The notes: generated by a model not told the origin, from the sequence alone. 45,157 nt of DNA from an uncultured Candidatus Micrarchaeota archaeon (GCA_903893865.1 CAITNU010000060.1:1-45157), one strand, 5' to 3'. Positions 11,206 through 20,330 are shown, numbered from the stretch's first letter. Program-made: numbers and translations.

Positions 11206-12270
11206 ATGTCATTAACGCGCTGCGCTTCGCTTGTCCTGCTCGCCGCCGTCCTAATGCTGGGATGCGCCTCCAACGGCGGCCACGTTGACCCGGTTAACGC
11301 GACCCGCGCGCTCCCGCAAATTCAATCTTACTTAGCCGAACATCCCAACCCCAAAATAACGGTGGCGCTATTAACTGGAGATCAACTCTCAGCCAAACTA
11401 GCTGAATACCCTGCTTGCGCTTCAATCAAAAATATCAAAAATCAATCGCTTTATTTCGTTTCATTTGAAGAAAACCAGGCAACCGCCATCGTCCTACTCG
11501 AACCTTCAACCGGTCAACCGTTGTGCATAATCTCAAACAATCCCGTGCCGACACAAAACCCGCCGACGCCCGTCGCTACAACCATCGCGCCGAGTCCGAC
11601 AAAACCAACGGCAACGCCAACAGCAACACCAAGTCCTACTCCGGCGCCCGCCGTCAATCCCGTTAGGTGCACCGCCATCCAGTGCGCCACAACCGCGTGC
11701 ACAGTAGACTTCAGCGCAGCACCTAACCTGGCCGATGAAGCCCAAAAAGCCGCTGAAACGTGCGAAGACAACGCCGCAAAAATCAAGCGAAAAATGCAAA
11801 GCGACAACCACGAAATCATCCAAATCAAATTCCAGCAAGGCATGCAATACGCGGGGCAAACAACAGGCAACTTGATAGAATTAAGCGCCGCTTACTTCGC
11901 CCGACAGCCGGACGACTTGGGCGCGATAGTCCACGAAATGGCTCACGTATACCAAGGGTATCCGTCTGGCCAGCCTTCCTGGCTTACGGAAGGCATCGCG
12001 GATTACATCAGGTACTGGGCCGGCTACAATAATTCTTGGAGCTACGCGCACTGCGCGGCCGCGCTTCCCAATTACACGTCGGGGTATTGGTGCAGCGCGG
12101 CGTTTCTCCAGTTCGTGGAAGAAAAGTACGACTCAAACCTCATCCCACAATTGAATGCCGCGCTAAGGCAAAACAAGTACGACGACAAACTGTTTCAAGA
12201 ATACGCGGGCAAACCCGTGGATCAACTGTGGCAAGAATGCCGACAAAACAATTGCAAAACAACTTCGTAA
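11206..12270 (+). CDS. secreted lipobox-type putative zinc metallopeptidase, BSP ('peptidase of plants and bacteria', PF04450-like) domain
   Basis: Signal plus lipobox LLAAVLMLGCASNG. Pro/Thr linker PVPTQNPPTPVATTIAPSPTKPTATPTATPSPTPAP. C-terminal domain has HExxH (VHEMAHVYQ) followed by WLTEGIADYIRYWAGY, which I recognise as the HE-x-x-H-x-x-Q ... EGIAD-[FY]-[VI]-R signature of basic-secretory-protein-type peptidases. Confidence 0.8.
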   Translation: MSLTRCASLVLLAAVLMLGCASNGGHVDPVNATRALPQIQSYLAEHPNPKITVALLTGDQLSAKLAEYPACASIKNIKNQSLYFVSFEENQATAIVLLEPSTGQPLCIISNNPVPTQNPPTPVATTIAPSPTKPTATPTATPSPTPAPAVNPVRCTAIQCATTACTVDFSAAPNLADEAQKAAETCEDNAAKIKRKMQSDNHEIIQIKFQQGMQYAGQTTGNLIELSAAYFARQPDDLGAIVHEMAHVYQGYPSGQPSWLTEGIADYIRYWAGYNNSWSYAHCAAALPNYTSGYWCSAAFLQFVEEKYDSNLIPQLNAALRQNKYDDKLFQEYAGKPVDQLWQECRQNNCKTTS

Positions 12271-12372
12271 GCTCCGGACGATAAAAGTCAGACCGTTCGC
12301 TAGGGGAACAATGCTTGACCTGACGCTCGGAGGACACGTCATTTCCGCGGAAATAAAGAAGCCACGGTTTTG

Positions 12373-13485
12373 TTACTGGCAGTTGATTTGCTTGATGCAG
12401 CCGTCATCGCCTTGGACGCCGTTCCAGTTCTGGTGGTTTTCACGGCATTTCACTGCTTCAGTCAGCACCGCTTCCGGAACCGCGCAACCAGGTCTCTGCG
12501 AACCTTCAATCTGGCCGCGGACTATGTCGCGGACGGTCTTGCACTCGTATTTCGTCACGCAGTTTTTGTCGTCGCGAATCTGCGCGTACTCCGAATTCTT
12601 CGCTTGGCAAGCCTGCTGTTCCTGCTGCGTCGGGGAAACAATGCCCACGCATTTGACTGGTTCGAGGCACTGCGCGTAAAACGGCAGAGACGGTTTTTCG
12701 ACGCTTGTTTTCTTAAGCGTCACCTTCGGTCCCGCCTGCCCATTCCCCTGGTTGCCGCCTGACTCGATTGCAAAGTTAACGTTGAACGGCTGAGGCAAAC
12801 CGCCGCCCAGCTTTGCAACGCAAACGCTTATCGTCCCGCCGTTCTTCGGAATCAACGCGAATTCGACGCACGGCTTGGCGTACTGCTTGTTTTCGCCGGT
12901 TTTAGTCACCGAAATGTCTTCCGGGTTGCCGCCGCCGATTTGCACGTTTTTCAATATCGTCGGCGTCGTCTCGTTCCAGACCGCGCTTGTATCGAAATTT
13001 TGGCCGTCCGCCGCGAACAACGCGTTAAGCGTCAACAGGAAATCGAAATCCACGGCTTGCGGTTTCGCGTCTTCAAACGCCAGCTTGTTCTTGTCCATCA
13101 TACTGGAGTACGCGACGGTTCCGTCGTCCTCGTACACAGTTATTTTCTGCACGGCGAAGTTCTGCGCGTCTCCCCCGACGAAATCCTGAATGAAACCGTT
13201 CAACGCCTTTTTGCCGCCGCAGTTTTTTTCTTCAGTCAACCAAACCGTGAAAGACGTCATCGGTCCCCAGCCCTGCAATTCGTAATCAAGCTTCAAGCCG
13301 AGAAAAGGCGTGGGCGTAGGCGAAGCCTTCATCGTCGGCGTTGAGGTCGCAATTGCAGTCGCCGTCGCCACTGTGGCAGCTGCAGTAGGCGTCGCTGTCG
13401 GCGTTGTCGCCGGAGGTTGCGTGCAACCGAATAACAAGATTGCGGAAATCAAAAACAACGAACAAAACAACGAAATAATCCTCAT
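12373..13485 (-). CDS. secreted lipobox-type protein with Pro/Thr/Ala linker and Cys-rich C-terminus, function unknown
   Basis: ATG at 13485 with GAGGTGA 6 nt upstream. N-terminus MRIISLFCSLFLISAILLFGCTQPPATTPTATPTAAAT. Ten Cys in the last ~100 aa. Confidence 0.8.
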   Translation of the reverse strand: MRIISLFCSLFLISAILLFGCTQPPATTPTATPTAAATVATATAIATSTPTMKASPTPTPFLGLKLDYELQGWGPMTSFTVWLTEEKNCGGKKALNGFIQDFVGGDAQNFAVQKITVYEDDGTVAYSSMMDKNKLAFEDAKPQAVDFDFLLTLNALFAADGQNFDTSAVWNETTPTILKNVQIGGGNPEDISVTKTGENKQYAKPCVEFALIPKNGGTISVCVAKLGGGLPQPFNVNFAIESGGNQGNGQAGPKVTLKKTSVEKPSLPFYAQCLEPVKCVGIVSPTQQEQQACQAKNSEYAQIRDDKNCVTKYECKTVRDIVRGQIEGSQRPGCAVPEAVLTEAVKCRENHQNWNGVQGDDGCIKQINCQ

Positions 13486-13617
13486 TTATTTCACCTCAGT
13501 GATCAGTCAATTAGTCAACCGTTCGCATTAGGTTCCACCATTTTTTAAAGCGATGTTTTGCGGTTGCCCAAAGATTTATATTCTTCTTAAATGATGCAAC
13601 CAGCAGGTAGAGACGAA

Positions 13618-13750
13618 TGCGGCTGCCGGGAATCGGACCCGGATCACGAGCTTTCTCCGCGCTTTTTAGTGCACGCTTTTTTAGTGCAGGTTTTTGCCAC
13701 AGCAAAAAAGTGCTTGGGAAGCTCGTATCATGCCACTAGACCACAGCCGC
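13618..13750 (-). tRNA. tRNA-Gly (anticodon CCC) with a 62-nt intron at the canonical 37/38 position
   Basis: Minus strand reads GCGGCTG-TG-GTCTAGTGGCATGAT-A-CGAGC-TTCCCA | intron | A-GCTCG-TGAT-CCGGG-TCCGATT-CCCGG-CAGCCGC-A. All 7 acceptor, 5 anticodon-stem and 5 T-stem pairs are Watson-Crick. A14, G18, G19 and A21 are present, the discriminator is A73, and CCA is not encoded. Exon 1 is 13715..13750. The intron is 13653..13714, with the boundary ambiguous by 1 nt because of flanking A residues. Exon 2 is 13618..13652. Confidence 0.88.
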
Positions 13751-13840
13751 GCTGCGCGAAACTCTGCGGAATTCCGCGGAATAGTTTTTCTTCAAGAGCA
13801 ATTAAAAACCTTGCCCGCGTTTGCTTTAACGAAAGCAAAA

Positions 13841-14716
13841 ATGGTTTTAGATGTCTTGATCCCGCCGCGCCGCGCCCTCCGCGAGCCTTGGCTTATAGCG
13901 TTAGCGAGCGCGGTCTTCGTGACTTGCGGCGTCGGATTGCAAGTCCTCGTTCCGTCTTTGCACGCGAGCGCGGTTATTTTCGCGATGGTTCCCGCGATTC
14001 CGCTGGTTTGGACGCTTCTCATGCACGAAGAGCGTTTGGAAGAAAACGTTTGCTACCGCTATGCGTCCCCGCTCGCCGGCGAAAGAAAGTTCGTCGAATA
14101 CCACTCGCGCCTCATACTTGTTTTCGCATGGTTTTTCTTTGGCGCAATCGTCGCTTACTGCGCTTGGTACGCCGTTCTGCCCGCTCCCGCGACTCAAATC
14201 ATTTTCAGCGACCAGTTGAACGAAGTCAAGGCAATCGAGGGATTCGCGGCGAATGCAGCAAATGCGGCGGGAAATGCGGCTGCCGCGGGAGTCGGCGCGG
14301 TTGGCGTTACCGGCCGCGTTTTCAGCGAAGGCAAGTTTTTGACGCTCTTGCTGCATAATCTGCAAGTCCTCGGCTTGATGTTCTTGTTCTGCCTAATTTA
14401 CGGCGTCGGAAGCGTGTATTTGCTTCTCTGGAACGCGAGCATAATCGGCGTAGTAATCGGCGCTCGCGTGAAAATCGAGGGCGTGCTCGGTTTCGTGACG
14501 GGTTTTCTCGGCTTGTTCCCGCACGGGATTTTCGAAGTAGCAGCGTATTTCGTCGCGAGCATCGCAGGCGGCATTCTCTCGATGGCGGTAATACGCTTCG
14601 CTCGCTCTAAGTGCCCGCGCCGCGAAGCGCCCGCGCTCGCGCTCGACGTCGTGATTCTCGCGGTTGTTTCCGTCGTGCTAATCACGATAGGAGCCGCGAT
14701 TGAAAGCAGCTATTAA
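13841..14716 (+). CDS. integral membrane protein, SpoIIM/DUF95-like family
   Basis: ORF track start 13694 overlaps the tRNA. The in-frame ATG at 13841 lies about 31-40 nt downstream of ATTAAAAA. The motif region LLHNLQVLGLMFLF...LLLWNASIIGVVIG...LFPHGIFEVAAYFVASIAGG resembles the HGI[FP]E...A-x-x-x-AGG core of DUF95/SpoIIM proteins. It contains an Ala/Asn/Gly low-complexity loop (AANAANAAGNAAAAGVGAVGV). Confidence 0.75.
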   Translation: MVLDVLIPPRRALREPWLIALASAVFVTCGVGLQVLVPSLHASAVIFAMVPAIPLVWTLLMHEERLEENVCYRYASPLAGERKFVEYHSRLILVFAWFFFGAIVAYCAWYAVLPAPATQIIFSDQLNEVKAIEGFAANAANAAGNAAAAGVGAVGVTGRVFSEGKFLTLLLHNLQVLGLMFLFCLIYGVGSVYLLLWNASIIGVVIGARVKIEGVLGFVTGFLGLFPHGIFEVAAYFVASIAGGILSMAVIRFARSKCPRREAPALALDVVILAVVSVVLITIGAAIESSY

Positions 14717-14770
14717 TCCAATGCTGGCCTGAAGCCGCATTGCTTCGAAAGCGCTTTGAATCGCTTAAAC

Positions 14771-15337
14771 CTATTTTTTTAGGGTTTTGAGAAAATTCGC
14801 GTAAATCTCTTCGCCGCGCTCGGTGTGCTGCACTTCCGGGTGAAAAAGCGTTCCGTAAATCGGCTTGTGCTCGTGCTTGAAAGCGTGCCACTTGCAGTCC
14901 GCGCTCGACGCGAGCAACCGAAAGCCGGGCGCGCTCACGATTTCGTCGTTGTGCGAAGCCCACGCCTTGAACTCGCGCGGGAAACCGCGAAACAAATCGT
15001 CTTCATCGACAACACTTATTTTTACTGGGCCGTATTCCGGCTTCGCCGCGGGCGCCACAGCGCCGCCGAAATGAAGCGCGATGAATTGTTGTCCGTAGCA
15101 AACCCCGAAAATGCCACCCTCGAACTCGTCTAGGAGCGCGCCGCAATTGCCGGCAGCGTCGAGTTCGCCTTTCCCTGCGCGCATTGCTCCCCCGCTTAAA
15201 ACGAGTCCGTCCGCATCCTTGACTTTTTGCAGCGAAACGTCAGCTGAGACGATTTCGCTTTCGCATTCTAGGTCGCGCAGCGTGCGCCAAATTCGATGCG
15301 TCCATTGACTCCCCAAATCAACGACTAAAACCTTCAC
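14771..15337 (-). CDS. guaAA: GMP synthase (glutamine-hydrolysing) subunit A, class I glutamine amidotransferase
   Basis: 188 aa. GTG start with GGTGA 5 nt upstream. Nucleophile-elbow GVCYGQQ and C-terminal HPEV histidine motif. Size and motifs match archaeal stand-alone GuaA GATase subunits. Confidence 0.9.
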   Translation of the reverse strand: MKVLVVDLGSQWTHRIWRTLRDLECESEIVSADVSLQKVKDADGLVLSGGAMRAGKGELDAAGNCGALLDEFEGGIFGVCYGQQFIALHFGGAVAPAAKPEYGPVKISVVDEDDLFRGFPREFKAWASHNDEIVSAPGFRLLASSADCKWHAFKHEHKPIYGTLFHPEVQHTERGEEIYANFLKTLKK

Positions 15338-15384
15338 AAATTCACCGAAATTGCTTTATAGGTGTTCTATTCTTAAACATTTTC

Positions 15385-16422
15385 ATGGCACCTACAATTT
15401 ACATAAACATGCCTAGCGTCCGTCGTACTGGAAGAGATTCATGGCTTCGCTGGACTACTCATGCGCTGGAAGCTCGGGCTGGACGCGAGGTTTTGCGAGA
15501 TGTTCATGAAGGTATAAGTGAGTCTGCACGTAAAAAGCAATTTTCAACCACTCTTCGCCTAACCAAGATGTTATACTGGCTTAAAAATAGAAAAATGCTT
15601 GACTCCCACAAAATCGAGAACGAGGTCCACTTGCTCGTGGTCGATAATGCTATGCTATACAAAGAGAAACCGCTTGAAAAAACTCACTCGCCTAACGCGT
15701 TAGAATTAGCTAAGGTATTGAACAAAATCGGAAACAAGTACGGCGTGTTCGTACACTACCTGATTGTCACGCCAGAAATCATAAGAGAATTGTTTCCTAG
15801 CGGCGTGCCCTTCGACTCGCACTTGGTGCATATAGCCAACGCAAGGCCAAAGACTGGCCCGGGTGAAGCCACTAACTTAGGATTCGCTTACATGCGGACA
15901 CACCAAGAATTTTTTCTAAATTCGTCTGACGAGAAACGCGATGTTTTGATATCGCGAGTGCCTGACGACATTAAACTACCGATGAAAAAAATAAAGTGGG
16001 TGAACGCCGCCAGGCCTGAGGAGAAAATGCATAGAAACGTTTTCTTTGACATTGAAGACATCGTCAAGGGTGCGATAATCCCGACTCCGGGTTCCCGCGG
16101 ATATGATTTTGATGGGCACAAGTATAAGTATTCAGGACGAGGCGCAGTGTATCGTGTTTTTCAGGGAAAACCAAGTGAGTTTTATTATTATGGAACTCGT
16201 TTCGGCAAAGACAAAGGAGTCAAACACTCGAAAAATGTCCGCGAATTTAACATGCCTAACTACCTCTTTCACGGAAAAAGAAGTACCTGGAGCAAATCAG
16301 GCACAAAGAGTGATGTTTTCGGTTGGCTAATCCCAGGAGTAACTCCAATAGAGGGATTAAACCAACTAATAGTCAGCAAGATTATCGCGGCTTCTGGAAT
16401 AAAGCGGCCGACAAAAACTTGA
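15385..16422 (+). CDS. hypothetical protein in a compositionally atypical (lower-GC) gene
   Basis: ATG at 15385. A long clean 345-aa ORF with no strong competing ORF. Codon choice differs visibly from its neighbours (AGA/AAA/AAT/ATA-rich). No family recognised. Confidence 0.65.
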   Translation: MAPTIYINMPSVRRTGRDSWLRWTTHALEARAGREVLRDVHEGISESARKKQFSTTLRLTKMLYWLKNRKMLDSHKIENEVHLLVVDNAMLYKEKPLEKTHSPNALELAKVLNKIGNKYGVFVHYLIVTPEIIRELFPSGVPFDSHLVHIANARPKTGPGEATNLGFAYMRTHQEFFLNSSDEKRDVLISRVPDDIKLPMKKIKWVNAARPEEKMHRNVFFDIEDIVKGAIIPTPGSRGYDFDGHKYKYSGRGAVYRVFQGKPSEFYYYGTRFGKDKGVKHSKNVREFNMPNYLFHGKRSTWSKSGTKSDVFGWLIPGVTPIEGLNQLIVSKIIAASGIKRPTKT

Positions 16423-16429
16423 ACAAACC

Positions 16430-17392
16430 TTATTCCCACTCGATTGTGCCAGGCGGCTTGAACGTGCAGTCGAACACCACGCGGTTAATCTTGTCTTTGA
16501 GTTCGTTCGCGATGCGCGCGCTCAAACGTTCTAGAAATTCCGGCGGAAAGCGCGAGGGCTGCGCGGTCATCGCGTCAGCGCAAGAAACCGCGCGAACGAC
16601 GACTGTTTCCTTGTAAGAGCGCGCGTCGCCTTGCACGCCAACGCTTCGCACGGGTAGAAGAACAGCAAAATACTGCCACGGCCGCTCGAACTCGCCTCGG
16701 CCAGCGCCGGCCTCGATTTCTTCTTCCGCTATCGCGCAAGCGCGCCTGCAAACCGCAACTCGCTCAGGCGAGAGTTCGCCGAGAACGCGCACAGCGAGTC
16801 CTGGACCTGGAAAAGGCTGGCGATTAAAAATCGCGGGTGGAACACCGAGTTCGCGCGCTACGAGCCTGACTTCATCCTTGTACAAATCGCGCAACGGTTC
16901 GACGAGGCGCAGCCCCATTTTTTCCGGCAAGCCGCCCACGTTGTGGTGCGATTTTATGCGGTCGCGCGTTCCAGCGCCGCTCTCAATCCAGTCAGGCGCA
17001 ATTGTTCCTTGAAACAGGAATTCGGCGTGCGAGCGTTTTGCCTCGCGCTCGAAAACGCGTATAAACCGTTCTCCGATGATTTTGCGTTTTGCTTCCGGCT
17101 CAGTCACGCCTTTAAGTGCCGCGAAAAATTCATCTCCAGCTCGCACGACTTCGAGCTTGATATCAAGCTCGCGGAAAACCGCGGCGGTGTTTTCTGCTTC
17201 GCGCTCGCGCATGAAACCCGTGTCAACGAAAACCGCGTGGAGCTTCGCTCCAAGCGCGCGGTGCGCGAGCACTGCGGCAGTCGTGGAATCAACGCCTCCG
17301 CTCGCGCCGATTACGGCATTCGCTTCGCTGCCGACGGTTTCTTTTATTTTCGAGGTTTGTTCGCCGATGAATTTGCGCGGGTTGAAAGCCAA
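16430..17392 (-). CDS. guaAB: GMP synthase subunit B (ATP pyrophosphatase / dimerisation domains)
   Basis: PP-loop GASGGVDSTTAAVL. C-terminus ...KPPGTIEWE is typical of GMP synthase. The ORF is open up to GTG 17464. I prefer TTG at 17392 (AGGTGG 7 nt upstream) because it gives MAFNPRKFIGEQ..., which aligns with the usual archaeal GuaAB N-terminus and a ~320-aa length. The start remains uncertain. Confidence 0.9.
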   Translation of the reverse strand: MAFNPRKFIGEQTSKIKETVGSEANAVIGASGGVDSTTAAVLAHRALGAKLHAVFVDTGFMREREAENTAAVFRELDIKLEVVRAGDEFFAALKGVTEPEAKRKIIGERFIRVFEREAKRSHAEFLFQGTIAPDWIESGAGTRDRIKSHHNVGGLPEKMGLRLVEPLRDLYKDEVRLVARELGVPPAIFNRQPFPGPGLAVRVLGELSPERVAVCRRACAIAEEEIEAGAGRGEFERPWQYFAVLLPVRSVGVQGDARSYKETVVVRAVSCADAMTAQPSRFPPEFLERLSARIANELKDKINRVVFDCTFKPPGTIEWE

Positions 17393-17528
17393 AAAGAGTC
17401 CACCTTTGCGATGCCGCAGGTTTTCGTTTATTATCTCGTGAAGAGTTTTTAAACTCGACGCCACGACGGCTGTAACGGCAAAAGCGTTTTATTAACTCGG
17501 CGCTTTAAACACTATCCTCTTCGAGCAA

Positions 17529-18995
17529 ATGACGCTTTTTTCAAAGGTGGTTATTCTGGAGTTCAAGAAGATTCGCGACGCGGTTTACGAGATTCCGAAG
17601 AGCGGAGCGATGCGCGTTCCGGTGCGGCTTTACGCTGGCGAAGCGCTCCTCAAGAAAATGCAGGAGGACCGCACGCTCGGCCAAGCGCGCAACGTAGCGG
17701 CGCTGCCGGGAATAATCGAAGCGAGCATGGTCATGCCTGACGGTCACGAAGGATACGGTTTCCCCATCGGCGGAGTCGCAGCGTTTTCGCTTGAAGACGG
17801 AATAGTTTCGCCAGGCGGAGTCGGTTACGACATTAATTGCGGAGTGCGCTTGCTCACGAGCACGCTCAGCGCGAGCGAAGTCCAACCGCGCATCAAGGAA
17901 ATCGTTGCGGCGTTGTTCCAAAACGTGCCTAGCGGGGTTGGAAGCAAGAAAATCCGTGTTGACGAACGCACGCTCGGAGAAGCAGTTACGCGCGGCGCGG
18001 CGTGGTGCGTAGAGCAAGGGTACGGCGTTGCGGACGACGCGGAGCACTGCGAAGAAAACGGCGCCATAGCGGGAGCGGATTTCAGCAAAACGACGCCGCA
18101 GGCGCGCAAGCGCGGAATGCCTCAGTTCGGCACTCTCGGCAGCGGGAATCATTTCCTCGAAGTCCAGCGCGTAGAAAAAATATTCGACGCGGAGGCTGCG
18201 AAAGCGTTTCGTTTGCCTGAAGAAGGCGGCGTTACGGTTATGATTCACTGCGGGAGCCGCGGCTTTGGACACCAAACGTGCGATGACTATATCCGCGTGA
18301 TGCTTCGCGCTAGCGAAAAATACGGCATCGCGTTGCCCGACAAGGAATTGTGCTGCGCTCCCCTAAAAAGCCAGGAAGCAAAAGATTACTTCGGCGCCAT
18401 GAATTGCGCGGTGAATTACGCTTTCTGCAACCGCCACGTTATCGCGCACTGGGTTCGCGAATCCTTCGAGCAAGCGTTCCAAAAAAAGCACGGCGATTGG
18501 GAGAAAATGGGTTTGCGCACGGTTTACGACGTTTGCCACAACATCGCGAAAATCGAGGAACACGCCGTTTCAGGAAAAAACCAGCGCGTGTGCGTCCACA
18601 GGAAGGGCGCGACTCGCGCTTTTTGGGCTGGACGCCCCGAGATTCCGAGCGCGTACCGAAGCATCGGGCAACCCGTAATAATTCCAGGAACTATGGAAAC
18701 CGCGAGTTACGTGCTCGTCGGCTTGCCTCGCGCTGCTGAAACTTTCGCGAGCGTTTGCCACGGAGCCGGACGCGTGATGTCAAGGCACGACGCCATCCGC
18801 GCTTTCCGAGGCGTCTCAATTCAACAGGAAATGGCCAAGCGCGGCATAACGGTTCAAAGCGTCGAACCAGTGACGCTAGCGGAAGAAGCTGGAGGCGCGT
18901 ACAAGAACGTCGACGACGTCGTCGCGAGCGTGGAGCAAGCGGGGCTAGCGCGCATCGTCGCGAAACTCGTGCCTCTCGGCGTAATCAAAGGCTGA
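17529..18995 (+). CDS. rtcB: RNA-splicing ligase RtcB (3'-phosphate/5'-hydroxyl RNA ligase)
   Basis: 488 aa with characteristic RtcB motifs: MPDGHEGYGFPIGGV, GYDINCGVR, GSGNHFLEVQ, HCGSRGFGHQ, CHNIA, HRKGATRA, ASVCHGAGR. No intein-like insertion is apparent. Confidence 0.95.
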   Translation: MTLFSKVVILEFKKIRDAVYEIPKSGAMRVPVRLYAGEALLKKMQEDRTLGQARNVAALPGIIEASMVMPDGHEGYGFPIGGVAAFSLEDGIVSPGGVGYDINCGVRLLTSTLSASEVQPRIKEIVAALFQNVPSGVGSKKIRVDERTLGEAVTRGAAWCVEQGYGVADDAEHCEENGAIAGADFSKTTPQARKRGMPQFGTLGSGNHFLEVQRVEKIFDAEAAKAFRLPEEGGVTVMIHCGSRGFGHQTCDDYIRVMLRASEKYGIALPDKELCCAPLKSQEAKDYFGAMNCAVNYAFCNRHVIAHWVRESFEQAFQKKHGDWEKMGLRTVYDVCHNIAKIEEHAVSGKNQRVCVHRKGATRAFWAGRPEIPSAYRSIGQPVIIPGTMETASYVLVGLPRAAETFASVCHGAGRVMSRHDAIRAFRGVSIQQEMAKRGITVQSVEPVTLAEEAGGAYKNVDDVVASVEQAGLARIVAKLVPLGVIKG

Positions 18996-19126
18996 AAACG
19001 AGAACTGAAAAAGGAACGAAAAGAGAAGAAGACTGGAAAGCGGGTTGAAGAAAGCGCGTTAAAGCGGTTTTTAAACCCTTGCAAGCGTAACGTTTTGGCG
19101 TTTTAAAATCCAGCGGGTGGTGCGCA

Positions 19127-19492
19127 GTGTTCGGGTTAGGCAAAAAATTTTGGCCGATGCTCGGCTCAGCCTCGTTCTTCGTCGGCTTGGCAATCGCCAT
19201 TCTCGCGGGCGTCTTCATCAGCGCGCCCGACTCGGCGTTTTACTTCGCGTTAATCGTGCTCGGCGTAATCGTCGGGCTCCTAAACGTGCGCGACAAGGAA
19301 ACCGTGACGTATCTCCTCGCCTGCTTAGTATTTCTAGTCGCCGCGTCTTCGCCGTACCTCAGCTCGCAAATCCCTGAATCACTGCACGGCACGTGGGTTA
19401 CGCACATACTCAAAAACATCGTTATTTTCGTCAGCGCAGGCGCGCCCATAGTCGCTCTCAAAGCGGTTTACGACGTCGCGAAAGCTGCTTAG
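19127..19492 (+). CDS. small integral membrane protein (3-4 TM)
   Basis: GTG start with GGTGG about 6 nt upstream (alternative ATG 30 nt downstream). Hydrophobic segments throughout. No family recognised. Confidence 0.6.
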   Translation: MFGLGKKFWPMLGSASFFVGLAIAILAGVFISAPDSAFYFALIVLGVIVGLLNVRDKETVTYLLACLVFLVAASSPYLSSQIPESLHGTWVTHILKNIVIFVSAGAPIVALKAVYDVAKAA

Positions 19493-19523
19493 CTTAGCCA
19501 TTTAGCTGAAAAGGTCGAATATA

Positions 19524-19811
19524 TTGGCTGCACCGAACTGGCTTCCGCTAGCGATTACTGCGCTTTCGTTCCTAGCGCCTCTCGTCGCAACGTTTCTGCT
19601 CACGCGCGGAAGCGAAAAACGCTCTTTTCTTTTCCTCGCAGCGCTAGCGATTTGCTGCTTCGTCTTGTTCTGGTGGCTCGCGCTGCCCGGATTCTTCATC
19701 GGTCTCGGCGCCGCAGCGCTCGAACGCGAATGGAAGCGCGAAAAACGCAACCGCGAGATCGAGGCGGGCGCGAGAGAGAGGCGCGAGGCTAGGCACAAGA
19801 AAAAACGCTGA
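19524..19811 (+). CDS. small membrane protein with strongly basic C-terminal tail
   Basis: TTG start. Two to three hydrophobic helices, then EREWKREKRNREIEAGARERREARHKKKR. Start-codon support is weak. Confidence 0.45.
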   Translation: MAAPNWLPLAITALSFLAPLVATFLLTRGSEKRSFLFLAALAICCFVLFWWLALPGFFIGLGAAALEREWKREKRNREIEAGARERREARHKKKR

Positions 19812-19868
19812 AACGCTAAGAAGACGCTATAAGAAAAAAGTTAATATTCCCCTGCTTGATAGGTCTGG

Positions 19869-20330
19869 TTGGTGGGATGCTTGTCGAGCTTCGCTTGCTT
19901 TAGCTTAATTGTTTTGTTTTCGTTTTGCCTTTTTTTCGCTGGATGCGTTCAAAACGAGACGCCGTCCGCAGCCGCGAGTAATCCGAGCGTTTCGCTTCAA
20001 CCGACAGCGACGACAATTGCTGCCGCAAGCAACGGCGCGGCGAACGAGAAAAACGCGGCGATTGCGGAGTGCGTCGCTTTGTGCGAGGACGCGCTTGCAG
20101 ACGAGTGCGGAACCGCGCGCCTCGCCGAATGCGGTCCGTGGAACGAGGGACCGTGCGTAAGCGATTCAATGCCCGGCAGGATGCCGAGCAACTGGGTTTG
20201 CGACGTGGCGCACTCGCCGCGCGAACCAGTCGACGACGAACCGGGCAACCAGTGCGGTGAATACAATCGCGGTGAAGCCAAGCATTTCGTGGAAGTCGAT
20301 CCAGCTTGCAAGTTCATTCGAGCCGTTTAA
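19869..20330 (+). CDS. secreted lipobox-type Cys-rich protein, function unknown
   Basis: N-terminus ...FSLIVLFSFCLFFAGCVQNETP (lipobox-like FAGC). Eight further Cys in the mature part. The start is ambiguous (TTG 19869, GTG 19872 or TTG 19881) downstream of AGTTAATATT. Confidence 0.6.
   Translation: MVGCLSSFACFSLIVLFSFCLFFAGCVQNETPSAAASNPSVSLQPTATTIAAASNGAANEKNAAIAECVALCEDALADECGTARLAECGPWNEGPCVSDSMPGRMPSNWVCDVAHSPREPVDDEPGNQCGEYNRGEAKHFVEVDPACKFIRAV

Follow-up and report, generated by a model that had tools for sequence, protein, structure and literature searches.

Archaeal GMP synthase in its split form is typically encoded by an operon in which guaAB, the gene of the ATP-pyrophosphatase subunit, comes first and is followed by guaAA, the gene of the glutamine amidotransferase subunit. 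Single genes inserted between conserved ones are well known from the free-standing homing endonuclease genes seg and mob of phage T4, and accessory glycosyltransferases are classic examples of horizontally transferred genes with low guanine-plus-cytosine (GC) content. Here, we analyze a stretch of 45,157 nucleotides (nt) from an uncultured Candidatus Micrarchaeota archaeon (GCA_903893865.1 CAITNU010000060.1:1-45157; called "the window" at its full length) in which guaAB and guaAA are intact members of such an operon in the gene order of their relatives but, unlike in the typical arrangement, are interrupted by 1092 nt with one antisense gene, P0001, and in which guaAA begins with GTG. The host genome is a metagenome-assembled genome (MAG) of 1.0 Mb (GC 0.532, 102 contigs, 78% complete) from the order Norongarragalinales, for which a metabolism assembled through ongoing horizontal gain and loss of genes has been reported (PMC12892359).

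As a single AT-rich gene that sits in a tight spacer by the conserved end of an essential gene and is present or absent among close relatives, P0001 resembles free-standing homing endonuclease genes. It differs from them by its predicted transferase fold, by the lack of a nuclease motif or of evidence for promoting its own spread, and by its antisense orientation (an endonuclease gene at the same junction of a related genome, G024, is co-oriented with the operon). Taken as a whole, the locus is best explained by the horizontal insertion of a single GT-A-like gene, antisense, into the guaAB–guaAA spacer, a reading that we regard as probable. The features concerned are as follows:

15385-16422, plus strand: P0001 open reading frame (ORF), 345 amino acids (aa); fills the gap between guaAA and guaAB; predicted to be a divergent, glycosyltransferase-like protein of GT-A fold
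14771-15337, minus strand: guaAA, GMP synthase glutamine amidotransferase subunit (NF001975); GTG start; intact, separated from guaAB
16430-17464 (longest form), minus strand: guaAB, GMP synthase ATP-pyrophosphatase subunit (TIGR00884); stop codon at 16430-16432; intact
15338-15384, no strand: AT-rich divergent spacer of 47 nt between the P0001 ATG and the guaAA start, as read from the sequence
16423-16429, no strand: 7-nt spacer between the convergent stops of P0001 and guaAB; limit of the insert towards guaAB

The guaAB–guaAA pair was split by insertion of a single gene

The original prediction had placed a plus-strand ORF of 345 aa between the minus-strand genes guaAB and guaAA with spacers of 7 and 47 nt, and these coordinates are exact. 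The flanking genes were also named correctly: guaAA matches the NCBIfam profile NF001975 (GMP synthase subunit A) with 216.9 bits (cut-off 198) and guaAB matches TIGR00884 with 423 bits (cut-off 338.75), and their catalytic motifs are kept (CYGQQ and HPE in guaAA; SGGVDS and a C-terminal IEWE in guaAB). P0001 itself is a real gene with homologs to E = 1e-42, and since these align from residue 4, we consider its 345-aa start correct. The public gene call for the same protein (P0004, 284 aa) begins at Met62, is 61 residues short (omitting window positions 15385-15567), and is therefore without the first strand and helix (PSVR, W23, H26-A27) that are common to all homologs.

The junction between the two gua genes was readable in 38 species of relatives with the split enzyme (including Micrarchaeota, Iainarchaeota, Thermoplasmata, and Bathyarchaeia), and guaAB lies 0 to 110 nt upstream of guaAA in around 33 of them. 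Within the window's own genus, the TAA of guaAB is followed after 4 nt by the ATG of guaAA in genome G002 and the gap measures 14 nt in genome G004; the window has its 1092 nt exactly at this place. In both of these genomes guaAA begins with ATG-CCx-CTx-AAA (MPLKV), and the native-like sequence of the window ends at the guaAB TAA (as compared with G004) and begins again with codon 2 of guaAA. No member of the P0001 family occupies this junction in any other genome examined, and the homolog loci recovered from genomes and metagenomes all lie away from gua genes. Because the three-gene arrangement is not conserved in relatives, the insertion reading stands: this arrangement is a derived state, and the direct adjacency of guaAB and guaAA in G002, G004, and across Micrarchaeota, Iainarchaeota, Thermoplasmata, and Bathyarchaeia bears out the idea that both genes once formed one operon.

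It is extremely improbable that the gene is instead ancestral here with repeated loss in relatives or that the arrangement is an artifact of assembly. The fragmentation and incompleteness of the MAG and the occurrence of family members in other genera of the order would fit such views, but direct guaAB–guaAA adjacency reaches other phyla, the family is found at the junction nowhere else, and the composition of the insert is foreign (see below). Furthermore, a block of RtcB (divergent), guaAB, guaAA, and a SpoIIM-like gene (facing guaAA) is kept in four genera and continues without interruption on both sides of the insert, which makes an assembly chimera very unlikely because it would require two precise joins, and the same protein has been recorded on 4 contigs.

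As had been noted before, hallmarks of a classical genomic island or integrative element (an integrase, a tRNA target, and flanking direct repeats) are absent from the locus: the insert contains one ORF only and no integrase, the repeats at its boundaries do not exceed chance matches, and ARAGORN reported no tRNA in window positions 12000-20000.

P0001 is atypical in base composition and codon usage

With a GC content of 0.447 and 0.462 at third codon positions (GC3), P0001 ranks lowest among the 27 genes of the window, compared to 0.559 and 0.640 for guaAA and 0.571 and 0.603 for guaAB. It thus lies 8.5 points under the genome and 12 points under its neighbors. The contrast is strong locally and amounts to around 2 standard deviations (SD) genome-wide, where 724 non-overlapping ORFs of at least 150 aa served as the reference: P0001 has a z-score of -2.0 for GC (43rd lowest of the 724 ORFs), -1.75 for GC3, and -1.76 for codon typicality (by a genome-referenced codon index). 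These values place it within the lowest 6–9% of ORFs in the genome, which is atypical to a moderate, not an extreme, degree. The impression of a markedly A+T-rich insert, originally gained by eye, is thus matched by a measurable difference in both GC and codon profile that leaves the insertion reading unrefuted.

The codon usage that had been described was found in part. AGA and AGG are enriched among the arginine codons of P0001 (7 of 24 compared to 2 of 41 in the gua genes; p = 0.01) at the same time as CGC is depleted (6 of 24 compared to 29 of 41; p = 0.0007), and a mild enrichment is seen for ATA (p = 0.017 compared to the window), but the use of AAA and AAT does not differ (p = 0.5–0.8). 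Homologs of P0001 follow the GC content of their hosts (0.36–0.605) and lie at most 5 points below their own loci, so that low GC is a mark of this copy and not a trait of the family. Together with the adjacency of guaAB and guaAA in relatives, the composition supports the earlier proposal of a horizontally acquired single-gene insertion that split a housekeeping gene pair.

P0001 belongs to a small family with a predicted GT-A fold

Searches with P0001 against Pfam, NCBIfam, PADLOC, and PHROGs gave no match at E ≤ 1, and the protein thus matches none of the anti-phage defense families of PADLOC or phage families of PHROGs. The same holds more specifically for the profile of glycosyltransferase family 2 (GT2; PF00535, Glycos_transf_2), which at E ≤ 1 matches neither P0001 nor any of the 21 family members, and for GT55 mannosyl-3-phosphoglycerate synthase (MPGS) in Pfam and NCBIfam. 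Scattered chance matches are all that the 21 members show in Pfam, and the family profile found nothing among PDB sequences except for one chance match (E = 1.8). An exhaustive HMMER search of 1.84 billion protein representatives recovered no more than 26 clusters (50% identity level), with E ≤ 1e-10 for 23 of these; a word-indexed homolog search returned the window's own protein only, as the 284-aa call, and scanning metagenomes with P0005, the closest homolog, gave no match. Across the 21 aligned members, whose mean identity is 32%, 11 positions are invariant and 23 nearly so. Bridging to other proteins via the weakest matches was tried and given up, as it led to a low-complexity protein (P0029) and to proteins without Pfam domain (P0025-P0028). 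The description of P0001 as family-less and without recognizable domain therefore agrees with these empty sequence searches, but it does not hold with regard to the small, lineage-restricted family found here or to the fold of the protein.

This fold emerged from an AlphaFold2 model based on the family alignment (predicted local distance difference test 88.8; predicted template modeling score 0.90). We compared the model to 48,161 PDB representatives using VIA-align, and all of the 50 matches listed are GT-A-fold enzymes, nearly all of them glycosyltransferases with a few nucleotidyltransferases near Z 7. In a second look, 96 chains reached Z ≥ 8, and all of the chains listed are GT-A enzymes. 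Foldseek searches of the PDB and BFVD gave weak E-values (0.01 or worse) and lists that consist mostly of glycosyltransferases. The highest scores came from CgT (Z 11.2), WrtF (10.9–11.2), AvpGT (11.2), TarS (10.7), and SpsA (10.5), and MPGS reached Z 10.3 with 226 residues aligned in the first comparison.

When set against well-studied GT-A enzymes of the family 2 type (SpsA of Bacillus subtilis, 1h7l/1qg8; TarS and TarP of Staphylococcus aureus, 5tze and 6h1j; CgT, 5hea; WrtF, 9omh), P0001 shares their alpha/beta/alpha core in the predicted structure, with 165–187 residues aligned at Z 10.5–11.2 and a root-mean-square deviation of 3.0–4.2 Å. Common to both are an Asp that ends strand 2, an acidic pair after strand 4, and a Gly/Ala/Asn-rich helix in between. 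P0001 differs by an identity of only 9–15%, by the absence of matches to PF00535 or another profile, by a helical hairpin (residues 35–69) between helix 1 and strand 2 as well as a C-terminal region of around 130 residues, and by four His conserved in its family (H26, H82, H101, and H124) that are foreign to the GT2 signature.

The conserved positions of the family fall onto this core. D87, N164, and D195 are invariant in the 21-member alignment and D194 is at least 90% conserved. D87 closes the predicted strand 81–87 (consensus IHFVVVDN) and thus takes the place of the nucleotide-contacting Asp that ends the second strand in GT2 enzymes (the "VVDDGS" position). The motif PGxAxN opens the predicted helix 159–176, and D194-D195 directly follow the predicted strand 187–191, i.e., where GT-A enzymes have their acidic metal/diphosphate motif after the fourth core strand, here as a DD variant and not as a strict D-x-D. 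The predicted structure also has the Rossmann-like alpha/beta/alpha core of the GT-A fold. An hhalign comparison with 24 GT2 domains from related genomes was not significant (probability 1.2%); its sole segment pairs PGxAxN...DD with GKaaAlN...DaD of GT2. The protein has no transmembrane or hydrophobic segment (maximum hydropathy 1.03) and is soluble. By its model, P0001 is clearly GT-A-like and would be a soluble, very divergent enzyme of this fold, most likely a nucleotide-sugar transferase. It has the structural features of the superfamily and falls outside the sequence definition of every named family, so that its family, as modeled, is best called a new, lineage-restricted one within a very large known superfamily.

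A GT-A fold could also serve another chemistry, such as that of an NDP-sugar pyranose/furanose mutase (MtdL/UAM-like), a small-molecule glycosyl-phosphoglycerate synthase for a compatible solute (MPGS/GpgS-like), or a nucleotidyltransferase, in place of a transferase that builds glycans. We consider this unlikely. In its favor, the longest alignments belong to such enzymes: MPGS (218–230 residues over model positions 1–341, Z 10.3–10.7), MtdL (201–208 residues, Z 9.2–9.9), and rice UAM2 (210 residues, Z 8.3), with nucleotidyltransferases following at Z ~7 and a HAD hydrolase gene adjoining one homolog. MPGS (2wvk/2wvl, 2zu8), which offers the longest structural coverage of all, is furthermore of similar size, soluble, and of archaeal/thermophile type. 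However, the scores are level with those of ordinary GT2 enzymes, Pfam shows no match to the MPGS, RGP/UAM, or NTP-transferase families, and the HAD neighbor occurs at one locus type only. P0001 also has no more than ~10% identity to MPGS and no conserved phosphatase partner, and its family diverges far faster: a compatible-solute enzyme is not expected to diverge to 30–40% identity within a genus.

The P0001 family is patchy, fast-diverging, and probably dispensable

Of 68 genomes from the order, 12 matched the family profile, compared to none of around 330 from the rest of the class, i.e., the family is found only, and patchily, in Norongarragalinales. Pairwise identities of its members (27–40%) are almost independent of taxonomy and stay in this range even for four species of one genus, in contrast to the 79–89% identity of guaAA within the window's genus. 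P0001 is not orthologous to the copies of the same-genus genomes G001 and G003, because it is only 31–32% identical to them (they share 63% with each other), because they sit at other loci beside PEP-synthase-like and PurE genes, and because P0001 forms a long branch (1.65) outside their clade (support 100/100) in an otherwise star-like tree.

Gene neighbors vary at every homolog locus (RadA, APS kinase, Hsp20, amidase, UppS, HAD hydrolase, topoisomerase I, and UPF0175), and we saw no integrase or viral genes near homologs in our own ORF calls and Pfam scans of selected neighbors. The nearly complete genome G031:C1 carries three diverged copies with 33–45% mutual identity (60915-61928, 1221241-1222245, and 1265254-1266240). 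In a pair of strains with 99.8% identity over 2.35 kb (L122:4974-5975 compared to L123:~720-1720 and L044, G021), the family member of one strain is frameshifted by a 2-nt deletion close to codon 37, whereas that of the other is complete (333 aa). We conclude that the gene is dispensable, provided that the deletion is no artifact of assembly. A small, fast-diverging, patchy, and dispensable family fits accessory genes that vary surface or envelope glycans.

P0001 could also derive from a Micrarchaeota virus or act in virus–host conflict, e.g., as a GT-A enzyme modifying a receptor glycan or nucleic acid. The fast star-like divergence, the patchiness, and the multiple copies of G031 resemble conflict genes, and the nearest feature neighbors in the ESM Atlas are all clusters of phage hypothetical proteins, some with glycosyltransferase domains (0.90–0.93), although scores in this range are leads only. 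Against this stand the absence of relatives in IMG/VR contigs and of PHROGs or PADLOC matches, structural matches in BFVD at E ≥ 0.01 only, and the housekeeping rather than viral neighbors at every locus, so that we deem a viral origin or conflict role very improbable.

Other inserts occur at this and neighboring junctions

An insert between guaAB and guaAA is present in 5 of the 38 species. In G024, which belongs to the same taxonomic family but another genus, the junction carries a free-standing LAGLIDADG_3 gene of 403 aa (L022:290-1501, plus strand; PF14528, 30.1 bits) with a GC content of 0.377 between flanks of 0.48–0.50. G016 has a co-oriented ORF of 335 aa there that is without known family and has a helix-turn-helix-like N-terminus (L026:482-1489, plus strand; GC 0.394 compared to 0.42–0.43). 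The same-genus genome G001 has ORFs of 216 and 97 aa directly upstream of guaAA on a contig that ends before guaAB (L010:2045-3093, minus strand, equal to L049). Both show weak collinearity with the G024 endonuclease (E = 4e-5 and 2e-4, from a search of a tiny database), and the 216-aa ORF combines a LAGLIDADG-like "AFMDDEAS" with a C-terminus of MarR/ArsR-type winged helix, both below Pfam cut-offs. In Candidatus ainarchaeum sp. STA_44 (JAQTMQ010000005, L056:3090-3500), a second copy of the final 24 nt of guaAB (CCGGCGrCAATCGAATGGGAATGA) lies 37 nt downstream and is followed by a rubrerythrin/EncFtn-like ORF of 98 aa (35 bits) and then guaAA, an arrangement reminiscent of a footprint left by recombination. 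Each of the inserts named here is richer in A+T than its flanks.

P0001 might therefore have entered with the help of a homing endonuclease, either because foreign DNA was used to repair a double-strand break close to the conserved guaAB 3' end (the part coding for PPxTIEWE) or because P0001 later took the place of a resident endonuclease gene, which would make the junction a recurrent target. While the AT-rich inserts of G024, G001, G016, and STA_44 at the same place speak for such a course, P0001 has no match to PF14528 or a related profile, no nuclease motif or fold, and no endonuclease among the structural matches listed, and the window's insert holds no endonuclease gene or remnant. The window's genome (G000) has a single match to the G024 LAGLIDADG query, which is weak (E = 3.9e-5) and on another contig, and the similarity of G001 to the G024 endonuclease falls short of E ≤ 0.001 in a genome-level search. 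LAGLIDADG domains are widespread in the order and mostly lie within large ORFs.

Control junctions of the same gene block point in the same direction. RtcB|guaAB carries an insert in 1 of 8 species, namely an unrelated free-standing LAGLIDADG_3 gene in G023 (L054:1535-2434, minus strand; 299 aa, 35.3 bits), and guaAA|SpoIIM-like has extra DNA in 2 of 9 species (G001 and G019), about the same variability as at guaAB|guaAA. The latter was also examined on account of the present finding and thus with an ascertainment bias. In view of the control junctions, we withdrew the idea that it is a specific insertion hotspot, and insertion enabled by a homing endonuclease seems improbable to us. Acquisition of small selfish or accessory genes in the spacers between genes is frequent at this locus and probably across these genomes, and P0001 is one such case; a role of endonuclease-made breaks in its gain is possible. 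Two smaller observations concern the same block. The extra DNA of G001 (~650 nt) contains small ribbon-helix-helix-like ORFs without Pfam match, possibly a toxin-antitoxin pair. In G023 and G019, the RtcB match is broken near residues 76/77 and 104, where an insertion or a frameshift is possible.

A model for the insertion and for expression of the separated gua genes

The insert at 15338-16429 would constitute a self-contained cassette of an AT-rich, promoter-like spacer and an ORF of 345 codons, acquired horizontally and probably from a lower-GC member of Norongarragalinales. It would have entered the 4–14-nt spacer of an ancestral guaAB→guaAA operon in antisense orientation. The 47-nt spacer contains a TTTATA (15355-15360) centered ~27 nt upstream of the P0001 ATG, a placement that suggests a leaderless-type promoter by the usual archaeal geometry of TATA box and transcription start site, and similar boxes precede the G003 and G051 homologs. 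On the minus strand, TTTAAG (15377-15372) lies ~37 nt and GGTGA (15346-15342) 4 nt upstream of the guaAA GTG, which could supply guaAA with a short-leader transcript of its own. A run of five T on the guaAB strand, 12–20 nt past the guaAB stop and within the last codons of P0001, is a possible terminator of guaAB. After the insertion, guaAA would no longer be co-transcribed with guaAB and would presumably be driven from the new spacer and translated from its GTG. Continued expression of guaAA is expected because Norongarragalinales are reported to have complete de novo purine synthesis (PMC12892359). The product of P0001 would be a cytoplasmic GT-A-fold enzyme, most likely a metal-dependent nucleotide-sugar glycosyltransferase, in which D87 may contact the nucleotide and D194-D195 may hold metal and diphosphate.

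Several points weigh against this account. No sequence method (Pfam, NCBIfam, the profile search of PDB sequences, or hhalign) ties the family to any glycosyltransferase family, and the assignment as such comes from a predicted structure with middling scores (Z ~11) at 9–15% identity. The metal motif is DD instead of the canonical D-x-D, and a downstream "ED" pair that is partly conserved in the family reads KD in P0001. With respect to the transfer, no donor or relative of more than 40% identity is known, the genome is a 78%-complete MAG, and direction and date are inferred from a composition that deviates by only ~2 SD genome-wide. We nevertheless favor the horizontal insertion of a GT-A-like gene over a more far-reaching alternative, namely that the P0001 family consists of self-promoted single-gene GT-A cassettes of Norongarragalinales that enter breaks at conserved ends of housekeeping genes (e.g., made by LAGLIDADG endonucleases) and create diversity in surface or envelope glycans, with viruses or partner cells as the selective pressure. 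Such mobile cassettes, if real, would explain the star-like identities of 30–40% even within a genus, but we give them a low probability.

Under the favored reading of a horizontal insertion, the locus illustrates how a DPANN archaeon recently gained a gene, with the event dated by its context, and it indicates that even a 4–14-nt spacer inside the operon of an essential purine gene pair can take up foreign DNA, provided that promoter-like sequence arrives together with the gene. The analysis further provides a protein family that is blank in all sequence libraries with a predicted fold and a probable chemistry and draws attention to the free-standing LAGLIDADG genes and small inserts that recur around the gua genes of related genomes. 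The antisense position within so short an operon spacer is neat but not surprising in kind and follows a familiar pattern of accessory gene gain. Since accessory glycosyltransferases are classic horizontally transferred low-GC genes, current understanding is unchanged.

A separate observation concerns the GMP synthase of the order itself. The split archaeal form (guaAB, then guaAA) is found in family f1 of the order, with proteins that are 51–65% identical to those of Thermoplasmata and Bathyarchaeia, whereas other families of the order have a fused guaA of ~520 aa whose amidotransferase part is only 32–41% identical (loci L027-L038 compared to L011-L026). The presence of split and fused forms within one order suggests that the gene was replaced by transfer in one lineage.

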